Source: a virus. Taken from it: 12,800 nt of DNA. Position 1 is the first letter of the stretch. Each line of letters starts with the position of its first letter. The translations under genes were made by a program, and so were the position numbers. The DNA is taken from UHGV virus genome UHGV-0088363, one strand, 5' to 3'. This document shows, piece by piece, positions 486-12,718 of the stretch. Below the pieces are notes generated by a model. The model was not told the DNA's origin. It saw nothing but the letters and a program-made list of their open reading frames with translations, and searched no databases.

Positions 486-530
486 GTCTTAGCCCCAATA
501 AGGGGATTTGCTCTATTTAATTAGGAATAA

Positions 531-569
531 GGGCAAAACGGCAGGAGGTTGTTAGCGCAACCTCTTGCC
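531..569 (-). terminator. GC-rich hairpin followed by a U-tract in the S leader (lambda-homologous element)
   Basis: On the minus strand: GGCAAGAGG-loop-CCTCCTGCC (9-bp stem, one mismatch) followed by GTTTTGCCC. The surrounding 486..660 resembles the lambda S-upstream leader from memory. Confidence 0.35.
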
Positions 570-656
570 ACCCACTTTCACGAAGATCATGTGTAGAAGG
601 CCGCAGCGTAACTATCACTGATGAATTCAGGATAGTCAGTGGCTACGGCTCAGTTA

Positions 657-732
657 TGGTGCTGGTTAACGGACTTGAACCGCTACCCATTCGCTTACAA
701 GGCGACTGCTCTACCATTGGAGCTAAACCAGC
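657..732 (-). tRNA. tRNA gene, anticodon read as UGU (Thr-like), encoded CCA end
   Basis: Minus-strand sequence folds by hand as a 76-nt cloverleaf: acceptor GCTGGTT/AACCAGC (7 bp), D-stem GCTC/GAGC with GG in the loop, anticodon loop CTTGTAA, T-stem with T-loop TTCAAGT, discriminator A, CCA. One G-A pair at the top of the anticodon stem. Confidence 0.6.
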
Positions 733-737
733 ATGTT

Positions 738-812
738 TGGCGGGACAGCGTGGACTCGAACCACGATAAGAAGGTTAACAGCCTTCCGTAATGACCTTTA
801 TACGACTGACCC
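738..812 (-). tRNA. tRNA-like gene, anticodon read as GUU (Asn-like), possibly degenerate
   Basis: 75-nt cloverleaf 5 nt upstream of the previous tRNA: perfect anticodon stem GAAGG/CCTTC with loop CTGTTAA, perfect T-stem CGTGG/CCACG with T-loop TTCGAGT, then GCCA. Acceptor and D stems each have one mismatch. Confidence 0.45.
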
Positions 813-866
813 AAATAAAAAAAGCCACCGTTGCAACTTAAGAGTCACTAACGGCAGCTTACATCT

Positions 867-1379
867 TTAAACGGTATGATATTTCATTCTGGCTGCCTCA
901 AAAGCCGCAGCGGCAAGTTCGGCAGTGTCATGGTATCCAAGGTTAATACACTTTCCAGACGCATTAATTCTTGCTCTCCATTTCCCGTACTTAGCATCCC
1001 AAGACACGCCACGGTATCCAGATTTATTATTCTTCTGAATTTTCCTGTTTTGCATATTTTCGGAATGAGTGACAAGACGAAGATTTGATATCCGGTTATC
1101 TGTTCTTACCCTGTTGATGTGATCAATAAAACCATCTGGCATGGTGCCATAAACAATCAACCATGCCAGTCTGTGAGCAGGGTATGCTTTACCATTAATC
1201 ATAATCATTAAATACCCATCAGAATTTATTGATGAGCATTTCTTGAAAGCAAAACGAGAGTTCCATGTCAAAGTGGTCCTCTCTCTCCCCTGCCTCCACC
1301 TCCAGTGAAAGTCGCCTGATGATGGATTGTAATCAACAACAGAAAGCACCATTTCTGGCGTTAATTTTATTTCTTTCAT
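867..1379 (-). CDS. HNH homing endonuclease with C-terminal AP2-type DNA-binding domain (copy 1)
   Basis: 170-aa ORF with HNH motif DHINRVRTDNRISNLRLVTHSENMQN followed by SGYRGVSWDAKYGKWRARI...LGYHDTAELAAAAFEAA (AP2-like). RBS AAGGTAAAG upstream of the ATG. AT-rich relative to flanks. Confidence 0.8.
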   Translation of the reverse strand: MKEIKLTPEMVLSVVDYNPSSGDFHWRWRQGRERTTLTWNSRFAFKKCSSINSDGYLMIMINGKAYPAHRLAWLIVYGTMPDGFIDHINRVRTDNRISNLRLVTHSENMQNRKIQKNNKSGYRGVSWDAKYGKWRARINASGKCINLGYHDTAELAAAAFEAARMKYHTV

Positions 1380-1500
1380 CGCTTTACCTTAGGGATAGAG
1401 CCTGTTCGCGTAGATATGACAGCCAAGAGCGGAGCGATGTTTCCACCACCATATCTCAGGCCCATATCACTAAGACTCTTGTTTTGATTGCACGCGAATG

Positions 1501-1525
1501 CAAAAAAGCCCACAGGAGGTGGGCT
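1501..1525 (-). terminator. Rho-independent terminator downstream of pR' (tR'-type)
   Basis: Minus-strand RNA AGCCCAC-CUCCU-GUGGGCU (perfect 7-bp stem, 5-nt loop) followed by UUUUUUG, about 55 nt downstream of the predicted late promoter. Confidence 0.6.
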
Positions 1526-1557
1526 TGTGATGGTTGCTGAATGCAAAAGCAGCAGCA

Positions 1558-1596
1558 TATGTGAATATTATGGCTAAATGGATAATTGCATGTCAA
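1558..1596 (-). promoter_or_regulatory. Late promoter pR' (Q-dependent late operon promoter)
   Basis: Minus strand has a perfect -35 TTGACA (1591..1596), an 18-nt spacer and -10 CATAAT (1567..1572), abutting the Q stop codon. Confidence 0.55.
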
Positions 1597-2092
1597 GGCC
1601 TTTAACAGCAACATGCTTAACTTTCTCAACACGTTTACGCATTTTGAAAGCATTTTGCATTGGCTGGTACAAAACAAATAACGACGCTTTCAGGATGTCG
1701 TCAATTTCGTTTCTACAGGTTACCAGTGAAGGTTTTCTCCATCCCTCGCCACCACGTCCACACATCTTGCGTGGCTTTGCAGTCGCGTGATAGTAGGATG
1801 CAATTGCTCGCTTAGATGAACCATGAGCATAGTAGCTGAGGAGGATGCCAAAGGCTTTCTTGTCAATGTACATGACGGAATCGACGACCTGAGAAATCAA
1901 CATTCCATCATCATCATTACACATTGGCCTTGTCATAACTCTTCCCGGCTCTACGCTCTCCATGAACTTCGCTATTACGCTGCTCATGCGCTTTTCCAGA
2001 CGACCTGAATAAACCCATGCGCCCCACAGTTCAAGCCAGCCATTCAGCCACTCATGCTGTTCTTTGGTGAGGTTTAGTTCTCTTATGCCCAT
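1574..2092 (-). CDS. Q: Late antiterminator Q, non-lambda type (QuuD/phage 21-like family)
   Basis: 172-aa ORF with the motif pattern I recall for the short Q family (WGAW ... CNDDD ... YY.HG); RBS AAGGGAGAAGG; position immediately upstream of pR'. Not similar to lambda Q. Confidence 0.7.
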   Translation of the reverse strand: MGIRELNLTKEQHEWLNGWLELWGAWVYSGRLEKRMSSVIAKFMESVEPGRVMTRPMCNDDDGMLISQVVDSVMYIDKKAFGILLSYYAHGSSKRAIASYYHATAKPRKMCGRGGEGWRKPSLVTCRNEIDDILKASLFVLYQPMQNAFKMRKRVEKVKHVAVKGLDMQLSI

Positions 2093-2135
2093 GCGCCTTC
2101 TCCCTTGTTATCTGGAATGATTTTTACTGAGAACG

Positions 2136-2741
2136 TCATGCAGCCTCACTTCTGCTGTTTCGCAGTTTTTTAAGTTTCTGTTGATACTCCGCCTTGATGG
2201 TCCTGCACTCTTCGACAGTCCAGCGATGGCGGTTATGGTTTGATTCGATTTCGTCTACTGCTTCCTGCCCGATGCGGTTAATCAGTTCGACGCGATACGG
2301 AACGAGATTTCCGCTTTTGTGCTGGTTGCACACCACGCATTGCTTGTGAATATTGCGTTCATCAAATCGGAGTTGAGGCGCCGCAGCAGTTGTCCGGTAA
2401 TGCCCGGCATCCCACTGAGCAGACGTGAGCGTTCCGCACGAGATACATGGTAAGTCGCGGTCTCTTTCTCTGATGAAGGCGTTTACGGCTTGTTGGGCTT
2501 GTTTAATCCAGTAACTGCGGGGCTTTAAGGCGAGTTTTCGAATCTTAAGTTTATCTTTCTGTTTCTGCTCCTCTCGTCGTCGTTTCTTCTCTGCTGCTTT
2601 TTCCGCTTTTTTGCGCTGTTTGCTTCGTAGTTTGAGTGCTAATTGAGTTCCGTGTTCCGGGCAGCACCACCACTGATTTGAGAATGCCGGGTGAAACCAT
2701 TCCTTGCATATTTTGCATTTCCTTCGCGCTGATTTAGCCAT
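2136..2741 (-). CDS. ninG: NinG / Rap recombination-promoting structure-specific endonuclease
   Basis: 201-aa ORF, near-collinear with lambda NinG as recalled ([52 protein letters not shown]...). Confidence 0.9.
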
Positions 2742-2794
2742 AATCTTCTTCCTCGTGCATTGAGCTATTCTGATCGCTCATCAGTTCTGCGCAG

Positions 2795-3301
2795 TTATGG
2801 TCTACCATGGTTTTCATGAAAACCCAGTTCTTTTTCTGCCCTCTTCCTTTCTGCAATAGCGTCAATGATGCTAGCAAATATTCCAAGATATTTGGTGCGC
2901 CCATCTACGCATATATTCGCAATCCACTTACATCTCTCTTTATTGAAATATACTCCAGTCACTCCTGACGAATTGGTTATTTTTCTCTTTTGGTTCTGTG
3001 CATTCTGTTGGTGTGTAACCAATCGAAGATTAGATAGCCTATTATCTGACCTTACTCCATTTATATGATCAATTTTATACCCTAATGGAATCTCACCATT
3101 ATTTATCATCCATATAACGTGGTGAGCATAAGTAATTACACCATCGATAGTTAACATCCTATAACCATCACTCCTAATGTAACCAGCAACACTGCCAACC
3201 TTAACATTATTAGAAGGAGACACTTTCCATCTAAGTACACCTAAAACATCATCATATGATAATTTATTTCTTAATTCGTCTATGTTGCTTATATTTCTCA
3301 T
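2795..3301 (-). CDS. HNH homing endonuclease with AP2-type domain (copy 2)
   Basis: 168-aa ORF with IDHINGVRSDNRLSNLRLVTHQQNAQN followed by SSGVTGVYFNKERCKWIANI (AP2-like). AT-rich. Its start overlaps the 3' end of ninF. Confidence 0.8.
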   Translation of the reverse strand: MRNISNIDELRNKLSYDDVLGVLRWKVSPSNNVKVGSVAGYIRSDGYRMLTIDGVITYAHHVIWMINNGEIPLGYKIDHINGVRSDNRLSNLRLVTHQQNAQNQKRKITNSSGVTGVYFNKERCKWIANICVDGRTKYLGIFASIIDAIAERKRAEKELGFHENHGRP

Positions 3302-3449
3302 TATGTTCCACCATATTTAAGCATTCATATATACAACGCTCACACACGTGAACTTCCAGCACATGCAGCTTCTGACCGCAATTAGCGCACGTTAAAGCCC
3401 GCTCGACGCTTTCTTTCTGGTATTGAAGGGATTGGGATGGGCTAAGCAT
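3264..3449 (-). CDS. ninF: NinF-like protein with altered C-terminus
   Basis: N-terminal 37 residues [37 protein letters not shown] match lambda NinF as recalled; the C-terminal approx 24 residues overlap the HNH copy 2 start and differ. Confidence 0.7.
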   Translation of the reverse strand: MLSPSQSLQYQKESVERALTCANCGQKLHVLEVHVCERCIYECLNMVEHNEKYKQHRRIKK

Positions 3450-3814
3450 TATTGGATTCTCTGCATCATGAGAAAGACAATCATGGCGGCGCGGAGGGGA
3501 TTTTCATGTATAGCTCGCTTAGATTTACAGTAGGCCACACCGCGTGCACCCCACTCGTCTTCATCGAGATTGATAATGCTAATCCTGTATTTTTCAATAA
3601 TCGGCCATGCGTCTGCTGGGTTTGCGCATGGGTTAAAGGATCCGCGCTCAACTTCTACTTCAACTGCGTCTCCGTTTACAATGTCTCCCTCAAATGAGAT
3701 AAACACCATCGCGCCATTCTCACCTTCTTTGTAATCCGGTGATCCGTTATGAATGGCTTCGAATACCGCCACGTTAATTTCAAAATCACTTAACTGTGAA
3801 TAATCCATTGTCAT
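3449..3814 (-). CDS. Conserved nin-region protein of unknown function
   Basis: ORF starting at the ATG that overlaps the ninE stop (ATGA); its stop overlaps the ninF start (TAATG). Acidic protein beginning [21 protein letters not shown]. The six-frame track extends it to a GTG at 3850. Confidence 0.55.
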
Positions 3815-3987
3815 TTCCTCGCACGATGTCTTAGCCACCGGATATCCCACAGGTGAGCCGTGTAGTTGAAGGTTTTTACGTCAGATTCTTTTGGGATTGG
3901 CTTGCGTTTATTTCTGGAGCGTTTCGTTGGAAGGTATTTGCAGTTTTCGCAGATTATGTCGGTGATACTTCGTCGCTGTCGTCTCAT
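3811..3987 (-). CDS. ninE: NinE
   Basis: 58-aa product [52 protein letters not shown] matches lambda NinE as recalled; ATG overlaps the methyltransferase stop (ATGA). Confidence 0.8.
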
Positions 3988-4514
3988 GCCGCCCTCCTGA
4001 CGCCCTGCCCGATCGCCATCAATGCCGCTTTGGATACGGTAGTAAACATCCGTCGAGGACTGATGAACGGTCGCCAAATTAGCAGCATGGAGCCTTTGCT
4101 GTTTCCCTTCTTCTCCAGCCCTGTCGATGGTTCGATAAAATTAATCCGTCCATCAGTGATAATGCGAACTTCGTCGACACTCTCCAGAGCTTTGCTGAAC
4201 CATCCGACTGACATATCCTCTGGCACAAGCATAACTACCGTCTGTCGCTGTTGTATGCACTGCTCAGCGGCTTTTTCCACCCACGGCCTGATATTGCTGT
4301 ACGGTGGGTTATTCCAGATTGCACCGTGGCTTACCCACTCAGAATTGAGCGCGTCGTCGGCCTCAGTTAGCCAGTGAGCACACAGAGCATTTTTGTCGCT
4401 CGCTGCCGAATCCAGCCAGAATCCAAACTCAATATCCAGTGCATCAAAAAGCCAAAGCGGCGTTTGCCAGCAGTCTCTAACTTCTTTTGGTGTTTCTGAT
4501 TTATGCTTAATCAT
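3984..4514 (-). CDS. Phage Dam-type DNA N6-adenine methyltransferase
   Basis: 176-aa ORF with the N6-adenine MTase catalytic motif NPPY ([20 protein letters not shown]) and an N-terminal [26 protein letters not shown] region typical of small phage Dam-family enzymes. Confidence 0.8.
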
Positions 4515-5038
4515 TCAACCCTCGCATATTGCCCGTGATATTTGTTGATAGCCTCACTGGCAACCAAACCAGCAAGATCAAGATCTTCATAGAACCCAAA
4601 ATGCAACCGGCCAAAATCTGTGCGCACTTGAACGGCCCATTTATTTTTTTGCTTGTTCCATAAAACATTTTTTATTCCAGAACGGCTATTGCACTTAGTT
4701 TTCTGATTTCGGCTGTTTGCTATCCGGCTTGCCTCCCTAAGATTTTTTGGGGAATTGTCCAGCCTGTTTCCGTTAATATGGTCAATATTTTTCAATGGCA
4801 TTCTTTTGTTGTGCAGCGCAAAAACAACTACGTGAACAAACATCTGAATGCCTGCAAAACACACCTGTCTATACCCAGATCCATTTATCGATGTTTTAAT
4901 TTCATCTCCGGCCCGGTGGCTGTGGTTGGGGTGTTTTAGCGAGTCCTTTTTGTATCTGACTGTATCTCCGTCTAAATACAGATAATCCTCAATAAGCCGA
5001 TACCTATCTGACGCTGGCGTATTTGATTTGATAGTCAT
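4511..5038 (-). CDS. HNH homing endonuclease with AP2-type domain (copy 3)
   Basis: 175-aa ORF from the ATG overlapping the ninB stop (ATGA); HNH motif IDHINGNRLDNSPKNLREASRIANSRN followed by SGIKNVLWNKQKNKWAVQV...FGFYEDLDLAGLVASEAINKYHG; its stop overlaps the methyltransferase start. Confidence 0.75.
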   Translation of the reverse strand: MTIKSNTPASDRYRLIEDYLYLDGDTVRYKKDSLKHPNHSHRAGDEIKTSINGSGYRQVCFAGIQMFVHVVVFALHNKRMPLKNIDHINGNRLDNSPKNLREASRIANSRNQKTKCNSRSGIKNVLWNKQKNKWAVQVRTDFGRLHFGFYEDLDLAGLVASEAINKYHGQYARVE

Positions 5039-5475
5039 GCAGCCCGATCTCCCCATCTCGCTTTCCACTCCAGAGCCAGTCTCGCTTCGTCTGACCACTT
5101 AACGCCACGCTCTGTACCGAATGCCTGTATAAGCTCTAATAGCTCCGCAAATTCGCCTACACGCATCCTGCTGGTTGACTGGCCTATTACCACAAAGCCA
5201 TTCCCGGCAAGGTTAGGAACAACGTCCTGCTGCTTTAATGCTGCTGTAAAAACGCACTTCCAGCTTTCTGCATCCAGCCAGCGACCATGCCATTCAACCT
5301 GACGCGAAACGTCACCAAGGCAAGCCCAAAGCTTCCGATTTTGGTCTAAGCTGCGGTTGCGCTCCTGAATGGTTACTACGATTGGTTTTGTTGGGTCTGG
5401 AAGGATTTGCTGGATGGCTTGAATGGCGTTCTGCTGATGGATGGGGCTTCTTAGTTCAAACGTTAGTTTCCTCAT
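5035..5475 (-). CDS. ninB: NinB (Orf-family recombination mediator)
   Basis: 146-aa ORF, nearly collinear with lambda NinB as recalled (PDPTKPIVVTIQERNRSLDQNRKLWACLGDVSRQVEWHGRWLDAESWKCVFTAALK...). Confidence 0.9.
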   Translation of the reverse strand: MRKLTFELRSPIHQQNAIQAIQQILPDPTKPIVVTIQERNRSLDQNRKLWACLGDVSRQVEWHGRWLDAESWKCVFTAALKQQDVVPNLAGNGFVVIGQSTSRMRVGEFAELLELIQAFGTERGVKWSDEARLALEWKARWGDRAA

Positions 5476-10331: not shown

Positions 10332-11237
10332 ATGTCGATTAACAGCAATAGCGAATCCCTGCATCAAATGCAGCTTTTCCCTGTAGTAGAGGTTGTTTCT
10401 GATGATATTCCTATGGGCGTTCTCAATGATGGAACTCCTTACCTAACTCTCTACGGTCTCGCAAAGTTATGCGGCATTGATGACACGCCACTGAGGGTGT
10501 TCACATCAAACTGGAACACAGAGAAAAACAAACCCAGAGGTCAAAAAGTAGCTGCGTATTTAGCTGAGAAAGGGTTTCATAACGTCGAAAAGCTATACAC
10601 TCGCGTTTTAAATAGCTCAAACGTGGAAACTCATGCTTATCCTGACTATGTTTGCATGGCTATCCTCCGTTACTACGCTCTAGATGCCACCAATTTTGAT
10701 AGGTCAGTCGCAATAGGTAATTTTGTTCGCTTGGCTGAGTACACGCTTAAGCGAATGATTTATGAAAAGTCAAATTACAACCCAAATGCTTCAATAGATA
10801 TCTCATTCGAGAACTATAGAGCAAGGATTAAGCTAAACGATCAGATACCGACAACTCATTTTGCAGTATTCAGAGAGATAGCTGACATTGCCATGAACCT
10901 GATCGGAGGAGGATTCCCAATGGATGACACCACATCTTTGGATGGAAGTGTTGGAATTCACTGGGGAAAGTATTGGACAGCTAATGGGCTATCTGAGAAA
11001 TTCGGGGAAAGGGTGCAGTACCCACATTTATTCCCCGAAAATTACAGGCAGTCAGCTGCAAATAAGCATATAACAGCTTGGATTTATCCTATTGAGGCAC
11101 TTGGCGTGTTCAGAAAATGGCTACACGATAATTACGCAATGGAAAAACTGCCAAATTACCTTGGGAACAAAAAGATTAGTAACGCCTCCGAGCTATTAGA
11201 GTCGATAAAAAAACCAGCACTCCCAAATAAGCATTGA
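10332..11237 (+). CDS. Unknown 301-aa protein in the position occupied by rexA-rexB in lambda; candidate lysogen-expressed exclusion/defense gene
   Basis: Uninterrupted ORF with RBS AAGGAAAT, co-directional with cI, followed by a terminator; AT-rich versus flanks; no similarity to RexA/RexB and no kinase or NTPase motifs visible by eye. Confidence 0.7.
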   Translation: MSINSNSESLHQMQLFPVVEVVSDDIPMGVLNDGTPYLTLYGLAKLCGIDDTPLRVFTSNWNTEKNKPRGQKVAAYLAEKGFHNVEKLYTRVLNSSNVETHAYPDYVCMAILRYYALDATNFDRSVAIGNFVRLAEYTLKRMIYEKSNYNPNASIDISFENYRARIKLNDQIPTTHFAVFREIADIAMNLIGGGFPMDDTTSLDGSVGIHWGKYWTANGLSEKFGERVQYPHLFPENYRQSAANKHITAWIYPIEALGVFRKWLHDNYAMEKLPNYLGNKKISNASELLESIKKPALPNKH

Positions 11238-11756: not shown

Positions 11757-12083
11757 ATGGATGCACAAACACGCCGCCGCGAACGTCGCGCAGAGAAACA
11801 GGCTCAATGGAAAGCAGCAAATCCCCTGTTAGTTGGGGTAAGCGCAAAACCAGTTAACCGCCCTATTCTCTCGCTGAATCGCAAACCGAAATCACGAGTA
11901 GAAAGCGCACTGAATCCGATAGACCTTACGGTGCTGGCTGAATACCACGAACAGATTGAAAGCAACCTGCAGCGTATTGAGCGCAAGAATCAGCGCACAT
12001 GGTACAGCAAGCCACGCAGTGAAATGGGTGTGACTTGTGTTGGTCGCCAGAAAATGAAATTAGGCAGCAAACCACTTATTTGA
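11757..12083 (+). CDS. N: N antitermination protein
   Basis: 108-aa ORF MDAQTRRRERRAEKQAQWKAANPLLVGVSAKPVNRPILSLNRKPKSRVESALNPIDLTVLAEYH..., arginine-rich motif at the N-terminus; RBS ACAGGAGAATCCAG; the C-terminal approx 20 residues differ from lambda N as recalled. Confidence 0.95.
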   Translation: MDAQTRRRERRAEKQAQWKAANPLLVGVSAKPVNRPILSLNRKPKSRVESALNPIDLTVLAEYHEQIESNLQRIERKNQRTWYSKPRSEMGVTCVGRQKMKLGSKPLI

Positions 12084-12094
12084 GAGGAATTAAT

Positions 12095-12718
12095 ATGTCA
12101 TCAATCCGCTTAACTACGAGAATGAAAGAGGAAATCGCTCGTAACGCTTTAATTAAGTCTGGGTTTTTCACTGAACTTAAAGAAGTAACAAAGTTAAAGA
12201 ACCAGCTTGCACTTGACGCCAGAGTTATTGCGTTTGGCGGTAAAAAGAAAACTGAGGAAGTGGATCAGTTATCATCCAAGTTGGTAGCTATAAGTGAAGA
12301 ACTTGAAAAGATGGGATGTTCATTTTACTCATACGATGTTCGTTCTACTTCAATTTATCTGACTGTATCTGGCAGAAGGGTTGGATGGCATTCATATGGG
12401 AAAGACGGCAACGGCGAAGATATATTGCTCCCTACTCCGACCAAAGATAAATGCATGTTTAGCGCAGAACACGAAATAACAAAAAGGTTTGATGAAATCT
12501 GCGCATTGCAACAAAAACTTGAAGCCAAGAAAAAGGATATCGAATCAAATGTATGGGCTGCTTTGAACTCAGTCACAACAGTTAAGCGACTTATTGAAGT
12601 TTGGCCTGAAAGCAAAGAATTGCTACCAGAAGAAGCAGATAAAGCAAGTACAGCACTTCCTGCTTTACGGGTAGAAGATTTGAATAAGATGATTGGACTT
12701 CCTTCCGAGGCCGCATAG
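12095..12718 (+). CDS. Unknown 207-aa protein immediately downstream of N; candidate moron
   Basis: ATG 11 nt after the N stop with GAGGA inside the N 3' end; AT-rich; charged, coiled-coil-like sequence; followed by a hairpin and T-rich tract. The track's upstream extension (12035) overlaps N and is not used. Confidence 0.65.
   Translation: MSSIRLTTRMKEEIARNALIKSGFFTELKEVTKLKNQLALDARVIAFGGKKKTEEVDQLSSKLVAISEELEKMGCSFYSYDVRSTSIYLTVSGRRVGWHSYGKDGNGEDILLPTPTKDKCMFSAEHEITKRFDEICALQQKLEAKKKDIESNVWAALNSVTTVKRLIEVWPESKELLPEEADKASTALPALRVEDLNKMIGLPSEAA

Follow-up and report, generated by a model that had tools for sequence, protein, structure and literature searches.

The 12,800-nucleotide stretch of virus genome UHGV-0088363 analysed here (the window) belongs to a lambdoid phage and contains three open reading frames (ORFs) in which an HNH nuclease domain is joined to an AP2-type domain. 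A first-pass annotation had singled them out as strongly diverged, AT-rich genes that suggest repeated, independent invasions of the nin and late regions. We consider it probable that they are homing endonuclease genes, free-standing (intron-less and intein-less) and acquired independently of one another, whose products belong to the I-HmuI-like HNH_3 family and have an AP2-type domain. Each lies in a discrete cassette of 537-704 bp, inserted at a single, precisely defined position: copy 1 directly behind the late promoter pR', copy 2 inside ninF and copy 3 inside the adenine methyltransferase gene dam (Table 1).

The three proteins match the Pfam family HNH_3 above its cut-off and the PHROG family phrog_99, 'HNH endonuclease', over their full length. 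They share only 28-37% identity with one another (copies 2 and 3 being 37% and 28% identical to copy 1, respectively), while the motif D-H-I-N...D-N...N-L-R...N is invariant across them and residues D86, H87, N95, N99 and N108 are invariant in the three copies and in 22 database relatives. The His-Me finger (beta-beta-alpha metal) of the HNH_3/I-HmuI-like family is present in all three; disrupted catalytic residues were looked for, and the motif proved intact in every copy. Copy 1 additionally shows a weak sequence match to I-HmuI itself, with the DH...N...N residues aligned. Its AP2 domain exceeds the Pfam threshold (35.1 bits vs a cut-off of 33.3) and matches the AP2 domain of plant WRI1 (E 2e-6). 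The C-terminus of copy 3 is similar to that of copy 1 (BLASTP E 9e-9), and an AlphaFold model of copy 3 (predicted local distance difference test score, pLDDT, of 85) has I-HmuI as its top Foldseek match and resembles plant AP2 domains with a Foldseek probability of 0.99-1.0 and a root-mean-square deviation of 1.5-1.8 Å. By sequence and model comparison, a putative DNA-binding module of the AP2 type is thus joined to the nuclease domain, with the assignment being weaker in copy 2.

The low G+C content of the genes, pointed out earlier, is borne out by values of 0.409, 0.353 and 0.417 for copies 1, 2 and 3, compared to 0.463 in the rest of the window and 0.46-0.51 in flanking genes. The copy 1 protein is 100% identical to the annotated HNH endonuclease HK629_061 of the cultured coliphage HK629 (JQ182735), which likewise lies between Q/pR' and the lysis genes. 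Copies 2 and 3 are missing from HK629, and a second member of the family is matched elsewhere in its genome. In a set of 50,697 phage records, no relative of copy 2 or copy 3 exceeds 60% identity. The best match of copy 2 is in Klebsiella phage KP12 (52%) and that of copy 3 in Salmonella phage STP03 (36.5%), and thousands of records contain relatives at 25-52% identity. Each copy has a different closest relative, and elsewhere each is found alone or in pairs. Together with their mutual divergence, this indicates that the three genes are independent acquisitions and not local duplicates, in agreement with the repeated invasions proposed at first.

Cassette boundaries were established by BLAST comparison with empty alleles in Escherichia coli prophages (loci L002, L003, L004 and L005), of which L005 is without all three copies and L004 is without copies 1 and 3. 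We then surveyed 5,426 complete E. coli genomes, counting a cassette as present at >=80% coverage. The region represented by the window was matched in 2,331 of these genomes, and cassettes 1, 2 and 3 were present in 39, 44 and 34 (<1% each), all at >=98% identity. Each was always found at its own fixed site, and many related prophages had that site empty. The same was seen in 80 viral contigs picked solely by NinB similarity, where the ratio of empty to filled sites was 38/0 for site 3, 53/4 for site 2 and 15/1 for site 1. Presence/absence polymorphism at one precise site among homologous genomes was therefore found for all three cassettes, and vertical inheritance as core genes, checked in the same related genomes, does not describe them. 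The ORFs are full-length in 42/42 loci for copy 1, 30/32 for copy 2 and most of 19 for copy 3.

At cassette 3, as noted in the first-pass annotation, ATGA overlaps are present both at the ninB/copy 3 and at the copy 3/dam junctions. The gene does not, however, simply lie between ninB and the methyltransferase gene, as had been thought, but is inserted inside dam, after codon 9. The empty ninB/dam site reads ...AAATACGCCAGC / ACACGACAAG / GACTGCTGG..., and in empty alleles the start of dam overlaps ninB as ATGA, with the dam sequence running MTIKSNTPAHDKDCWQTP. Codons 1-9 of copy 3 (27 nt, MTIKSNTPA) are identical to dam codons 1-9 of the empty alleles in L004 and L005. The cassette proper consists of HNH codons 10-175, a new dam start and 13 diverged dam codons, after which homology to the empty allele resumes at DCWQTP. 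Copy 3 hence makes use of the start codon of dam and of the coupling of that start to ninB, while dam receives a substitute 5' end from the cassette. We also considered the reverse, that the common dam N-terminus is a deletion product of cassette 3, and rejected it, as the 10 bp specific to the empty dam allele match neither the HNH gene nor the patch sequence, and the KS-x-TP motif is native to Dam: it falls within the Pfam Dam profile, is present in the diverged Dam of locus L188, and is not present in the other HNH-family relatives compared. The better reading is therefore that the nuclease gene captured dam codons, and not the other way around.

The same 3' patch, carrying the new dam start, follows copy 3 in 18/18 loci with a readable 3' junction, across at least four upstream contexts. 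Upstream of the cassette lie two ninB alleles that are unrelated to each other, a third variant or, in one context, a gene other than ninB, in which case copy 3 has a GTG start. In another phage, a 77%-identical relative of copy 3 is located directly 5' of a strongly diverged dam, which suggests fidelity of this lineage to its site.

Cassette 2 overlaps and rewrites the 3' end of ninF, just as had been proposed. The empty ninF site reads ...GTGTGTGAGCACTG / CTGCGCAGAAC..., and alignment to intact ninF shows codons 1-37 to be native and the remainder, from codon 38, to be a cassette-derived tail, RCIYECLNMVEHNEKYKQHRRIKK. As a result, the native ...HVCEHCCAELMSD... becomes ...HVCERCIYECLNMVEHNEKYKQHRRIKK followed by a stop, with the second CxxC kept by different codons. 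The copy 2 ORF starts 38 nt ahead of the new ninF stop. The original ninF tail, cut off from its own 5' part, survives downstream of the nuclease gene and retains the overlap with the ninG start. Cassette 2 occupies exactly the same ninF site in 34 loci and the same new tail is present in all copy 2 loci, with at least six types of gene found downstream. In L001, L004 and L086, the RefSeq annotation (Prokaryotic Genome Annotation Pipeline) labels copy 2 an 'incomplete' pseudogene accompanied by two NinF fragments. Degradation of copy 2 in these loci was rejected, since each translates into an intact 168-aa ORF. In some viral contigs, ninF and ninG are 278 or 394 bp apart; these gaps, considered as possible alternative insertions, turned out to be extra genes following an intact ninF.

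Cassette 1 starts at the base right after the -10 hexamer of pR'. Empty leader sites read ...CATAAT / TAGAAG / GTAAGCTGCC..., with a terminator with a 17-bp stem directly following the promoter. In the window, pR' is followed by a new leader and terminator, a 122-nt spacer, copy 1, and then the original terminator minus its first 6 bp. The earlier placement of copy 1, between a late terminator and the tRNA genes upstream of S, was correct as to position, with the amendment that the upstream terminator belongs to the cassette. This arrangement is the same in all 42 loci, which include two different pR' types, with or without tRNA genes. No Rfam or tRNA match was obtained for the spacer. Given this position, expression of copy 1 should depend on antitermination by Q. 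A TAAGCT/TATGCT sequence at equal offset after the -10 hexamer in both leader types was considered as a sigma-dependent pause signal needed by Q, and dropped, as in the original leader it forms part of the terminator stem. The tRNA-Asn and tRNA-Thr genes themselves are present in L001, L004 and the E. coli E2348/69 prophage, and absent or replaced in L002, L003, L005 and L088, varying independently of cassette 1.

Alongside intact copies, decaying and lost ones were observed. Premature stops interrupt the nuclease gene in L100, L103 and L145. In L087, copy 3 is reduced to a 41-nt remnant by deletion between two CTATCAA repeats, whereas L086 retains the last nuclease codons fused to ninB, together with the dam patch. 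L088 carries the new leader and terminator without the nuclease, an allele explicable by recombination between two GGCTTTTTT runs. Such premature stops and footprints correspond to the cycle of invasion, decay and loss of a homing endonuclease gene. Patch sequences without a nuclease are rare (2/41, 1/45 and 8/42 genomes), and all that were inspected proved to be footprints, so that the mobile unit appears to include the patches.

I-HmuI is a nicking enzyme that starts gene conversion, and the closest characterised relatives of the three proteins nick. The nicking work on phages SPO1 and SP82 is cited in PMC2988022. In the proposed mechanism, copies 2 and 3 are carried passively by transcription of the delayed-early pR/nin operon, and copy 1, as the first gene after the Q-dependent late promoter, by transcription from the latter. 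During lytic growth beside a cassette-free relative, either phage or prophage, each enzyme would nick or cut the uninterrupted site, the proposed targets lying at the dam 5' end, midway through ninF and in the leader/terminator of pR', and recombinational repair would copy the cassette from the carrier genome into the cut relative. The carrier would be protected by having its own recognition site split and recoded.

Each cassette also brings a diverged replacement for what it interrupts: a start and N-terminus for dam, a tail with a second CxxC for ninF, and a leader and terminator for pR'. Host functions would therefore stay formally intact. The Dam and NinF domains are kept in the presence of the cassettes (profile positions 1-167 of 169 and 1-25 of 25, respectively), and HK629, a plaque-forming phage with cassette 1, demonstrates viability. 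It is conceivable, and we put it forward tentatively, that these are 'home-and-rescue' cassettes, in which a single recoded patch, in ninF that of the zinc-ribbon half, would restore the host function and at the same time abolish the target of the enzyme. If true, nuclease genes could in this way settle within genes and regulatory sequences with no need for an intron or intein. If general, this would represent a third solution, beside introns/inteins and intergenic placement, to the problem of insertion into functional sequence.

Several points weigh against homing as the explanation. The role of ninF, dam and the nin region is non-essential, while homing endonucleases usually reside near critical genes. 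Strong mosaicism of lambdoid phages means that ordinary recombination at gene boundaries could also distribute the cassettes. Cleavage, nicking and biased inheritance are properties that we infer for the three proteins, and the target sites are guessed from the insertion sites. Free-standing enzymes of phage T4 often cut hundreds of bases away from their own gene (PMC2988022). Every Foldseek E-value for the copy 3 model is >0.001, and the AP2 domain of copy 2 is the weakest assignment of the three (Pfam AP2 E 0.0065, below the cut-off), with the phrog_99 match nevertheless being full-length. A co-conversion haplotype sought at copy 3 did not emerge. Single-nucleotide polymorphisms in the flanks were unlinked to its presence (13 filled vs 36 empty distinct alleles), which speaks for one cassette on different backgrounds and is compatible with short conversion tracts as well as with their absence, but the sample is small and collection-biased. 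Finally, in E. coli E2348/69, the enteropathogenic E. coli reference strain (NC_011601.1; loci L197 and L198), one prophage has cassette 1, an empty ninF and an empty dam site, while a second, partly decayed prophage has cassette 2 in ninF. Filled and empty ninF alleles thus share a chromosome, so that no conversion took place in the lysogen. This is consistent with a nuclease gene that is silent in the lysogen, without being positive evidence for it.

Descendants of homing endonucleases that no longer drive themselves could also have been moved as passive cargo, through the usual recombination of lambdoid phages, be it homologous or illegitimate. Mosaicism is pronounced in the nin region, where ATGA-type junctions occur everywhere; two allelic versions of the local sequence flank each cassette, as at a recombination joint; and the cassettes are infrequent (~1%), with some copies decayed. 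We nevertheless regard this as unlikely, because catalytic residues are intact and ORFs full-length in nearly all copies, because 98-100% cassette identity over very different backgrounds points to recent rapid spread, and because all backgrounds share one insertion point, exact to the base, with the 77%-identical relative keeping its association with dam. Somewhat less likely still is a domesticated function, be it marker exclusion against competitors, DNA processing for ninB/ninG or action against host defences. The nucleases do adjoin the recombination genes ninB and ninG, marker exclusion can by itself favour the carrier (PMC2988022), and according to a recent report T4 SegB helps in immune evasion (PMC13096335). 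However, the vast majority of prophages that are otherwise similar do not have the genes, both decay and clean loss occur, and a conserved partner gene is not present. As to the suggestion in the first-pass annotation that the phage tolerates or exploits the nucleases, nothing in the analysis pointed to exploitation. An anti-phage defence nuclease was likewise rejected, as PADLOC returned only generic 'homing endonuclease' (HEase) models (E 8e-7 to 8e-4) and no partners, and so was a terminase-associated HNH protein of the HK97 gp74 type, given the nin/pR' location, the match to HNH_3 and not to PF01844, and the position of the terminase well downstream in a longer contig.

The location of copies 2 and 3 within coding sequences, and the fact that enzymes of the I-HmuI type are classically intron-encoded, might point to an intron, an intein or a transposon, but we give this next to no credence. 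Rfam, run on the whole window at the gathering threshold and on positions 500-5200 at E up to 1, recovered two tRNAs only and no intron, and the non-ORF sequence in cassettes 2 and 3 (<=41 nt) is too short for the ribozyme core that would surround the ORF of a group I intron. Protein splicing would need an in-frame insertion, whereas copy 2 is out of frame with ninF, and between copy 3 and the rest of dam there is a stop codon and then a new ATG. A repeat search at each cassette revealed neither terminal inverted repeats nor target duplications, a transposase was not found, and the HNH gene is the only ORF in each cassette, leading us to reject an insertion sequence (IS) or transposon as well. 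It is just as hard to credit that the three-copy arrangement is an assembly chimera absent from any real genome. The window is a metagenome contig (ENA ERZ1741601 NODE_175), and the triple arrangement, sought in complete E. coli genomes and IMG/VR, was found in neither, only in two metagenome assemblies. Even so, a 54-kb human-gut contig of a separate assembly (ERZ917937) contains the whole 12.8 kb at 100% identity, which is therefore not a chimera; all pairwise combinations also exist in complete genomes, with L001 carrying copies 1 and 2, L002 copies 1 and 3, and L003 copies 2 and 3. The three-copy window can hence be taken as real, and independently acquired homing endonuclease genes as its preferred explanation.

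Table 1. Coordinates and properties of the cassettes, nuclease genes and flanking features in the window
Feature	Coordinates	Strand	Properties
Cassette 1	863..1566	-	704 bp; replaces 6 bp (TAGAAG) of empty allele; boundaries vs L003/L004/L005
Cassette 2	2795..3342	-	about 543-548 bp, inside ninF; replaces 4-9 bp; boundaries vs L002/L005
Cassette 3	4476..5012	-	537 bp; replaces 10 bp of empty dam; boundaries vs L004/L005
HNH copy 1 ORF	867-1379	-	170 aa, intact; Pfam HNH_3 E 2e-18; phrog_99 E 3e-73
HNH copy 2 ORF	2795-3301	-	168 aa, intact; Pfam HNH_3 E 1e-19; phrog_99 E 3e-70
HNH copy 3 ORF	4511-5038	-	175 aa from ATG at 5038, intact; Pfam HNH_3 E 5.5e-11; phrog_99 E 1.9e-42
dam (phage N6-adenine methyltransferase)	3984..4514	-	complete, 176 aa; Pfam Dam E 8e-66, profile 1-167 of 169
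ninF, rewritten	3264..3449	-	61 aa; Pfam NinF 1-25 of 25, E 6e-12; alignment to intact ninF in L002/L005
Displaced original ninF 3' end	2734..2794	-	96% identity to intact tail in L002/L003/L005; ORF 2734-2904
pR' late promoter candidate	1567..1596	-	TTGACA, 18 nt, CATAAT; promoter scan 11/12 matches; overlaps 3' end of Q (1574-2092)
Imported leader and terminator	1502-1566	-	terminator 1506-1526; hairpin -21.5 kcal/mol, z -3.3
Spacer upstream of copy 1	1380-1501	-	122 nt, Shine-Dalgarno sequence; conserved in all 42 copies
Original pR'-proximal terminator, now 3' of copy 1	812..862	-	17-bp stem and U-run; -20.2 kcal/mol, z -4.5; precedes tRNA genes
ninB (orf-family recombination gene)	5035..5475	-	Pfam NinB E 4e-54; TGA stop overlaps ATG of HNH copy 3 (ATGA)
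ninG (rap-family recombination endonuclease), flanking gene	2136..2741	-	Pfam NinG E 3e-88
tRNA-Asn(GTT) and tRNA-Thr(TGT)	657..812	-	ARAGORN; Rfam tRNA 55-61 bits; between cassette 1 and holin gene S (162-485)

Read on the minus strand, the window represents the immunity, replication, nin and late-control segment of the phage, with genes in the order cI, cro, cII, O, P (DnaB-like), small ORFs, ninB, HNH copy 3, dam, ninE, ninX, ninF, HNH copy 2, ninG, Q, pR', HNH copy 1, tRNA-Asn, tRNA-Thr and holin gene S. It matches lambdoid phages piecewise at 95-98% identity, with no single record spanning more than half of it. Beside cI, a 301-aa ORF (10332-11237, plus strand) has a BstA_C domain (PF26567; from precomputed Pfam hits of the identical contig). 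BstA is a prophage-encoded abortive-infection defence, and this ORF in the immunity region may be a defence gene. In the leftward early operon, the gene for an N-type antiterminator (N36 domain) comes first and that for an Nmad5-domain protein (207-227 aa) after it (12035-12718 and 11757-12083, plus strand), both of which are ordinary for the region.

Lambdoid phages are textbook mosaic genomes, and to our knowledge the role of homing endonucleases in this mosaicism has hardly been examined. Together with its relatives, the window offers three cleanly delimited elements, each known with empty sites, with decayed copies and with footprints, in coliphages that are amenable to genetics; the cultured phage HK629 carries one of the cassettes. 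Lambda genetics would therefore allow homing, co-conversion and the proposed rescue patches to be tested directly. On the practical side, the elements rewrite ninF, dam and the pR' leader, spots where RefSeq annotation is inconsistent. A recent survey of lambdoid phages mentions only 'sporadic', 'apparently mobile' HNH genes (PMC12315714), and our literature search yielded no description of these three insertion sites.

The fusion of HNH and AP2 is, as originally stated, a recognised homing-endonuclease architecture (PMC10448857); for the family, the same source cites Magnani et al. 2004. Similarly to the window genes, the 'IPA-HNH' genes of phage ICP1 and T7 gp3.8-like genes encode an N-terminal HNH and a C-terminal AP2 domain and are sporadic in phages. 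However, the HNH-AP2 genes described so far are mostly from virulent phages, and the ICP1 versions are too diverged for the HNH_3 profile, which the window copies match strongly. I-HmuI and I-HmuII of Bacillus phages SPO1 and SP82 (PDB 1U3E) belong to the same catalytic family, and I-HmuI is phage-encoded and sequence-tolerant. It differs in lying inside a group I intron and in having a C-terminal region of the helix-turn-helix type, compared to the free-standing genes with an AP2-type domain reported here. In Skunavirus, I-HmuI-like enzymes occupy variable positions and have marker-exclusion activity (PMC12724721).

That the density of these genes and their translational coupling to operon genes are unusual, as initially thought, is overstated. 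Clusters of such genes in other phages are known as homing endonuclease gene ('HEG') islands (PMC10448857), and in T4 the start of mobE overlaps the upstream gene as UAAUGA and those of segC, segF, mobA and mobC by 11-24 bp, which is suggestive of translational coupling (PMC2988022). At least one complete E. coli prophage, L003, also bears three HNH-AP2 genes in the nin region, since a third gene of this type accompanies copies 2 and 3 there; L001, too, contains an additional one. These two additional genes (L001 6283-6894 and L003 6260-6661, in original locus coordinates) are of the HNH-AP2 type, different, and located just upstream of ninB; the one in L003 is N-terminally short and has a partial HNH remnant beside it. 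This brings the number of distinct endonuclease insertion sites in the nin region to at least four or five. Separately, a related prophage (L190 5097-7490; GCA_021452625.1) encodes a DnaB-like helicase of 797 aa instead of 478 aa with a faint LAGLIDADG_3 match, which suggests an intein with its own homing endonuclease and another selfish-nuclease site in the region.

Free-standing endonucleases of T4 provide examples of intronless homing, marker exclusion and gene splitting (PMC2988022). The T4 seg and mob genes resemble those of the window in being free-standing and overlapping upstream genes at their starts, in that some insertions split host genes (Aeh1 nrdA, T4 gene 60), and in the location of SegB within a tRNA cluster, comparable to copy 1 beside the tRNA genes. 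The seg enzymes, on the other hand, are of the GIY-YIG family, and not of HNH_3. Comparable to copy 3 in its host gene is an out-of-frame HNH insertion, the 'ShiLan domain', in actinophage DNA methylase genes (PMC11855218). Both are HNH genes inside a phage methyltransferase gene without an intron or intein, but the actinophage insert is read through in frame within the methylase, whereas copy 3 takes the first nine codons of the methylase, which restarts at a new ATG. The split T4 and Aeh1 genes, for their part, give rise to two polypeptides that reassemble, while the window cassettes supply a substitute end and leave one functional-looking ORF. The type of element is thus already known, and the replacement of the interrupted sequence in each cassette is the feature most worth following.

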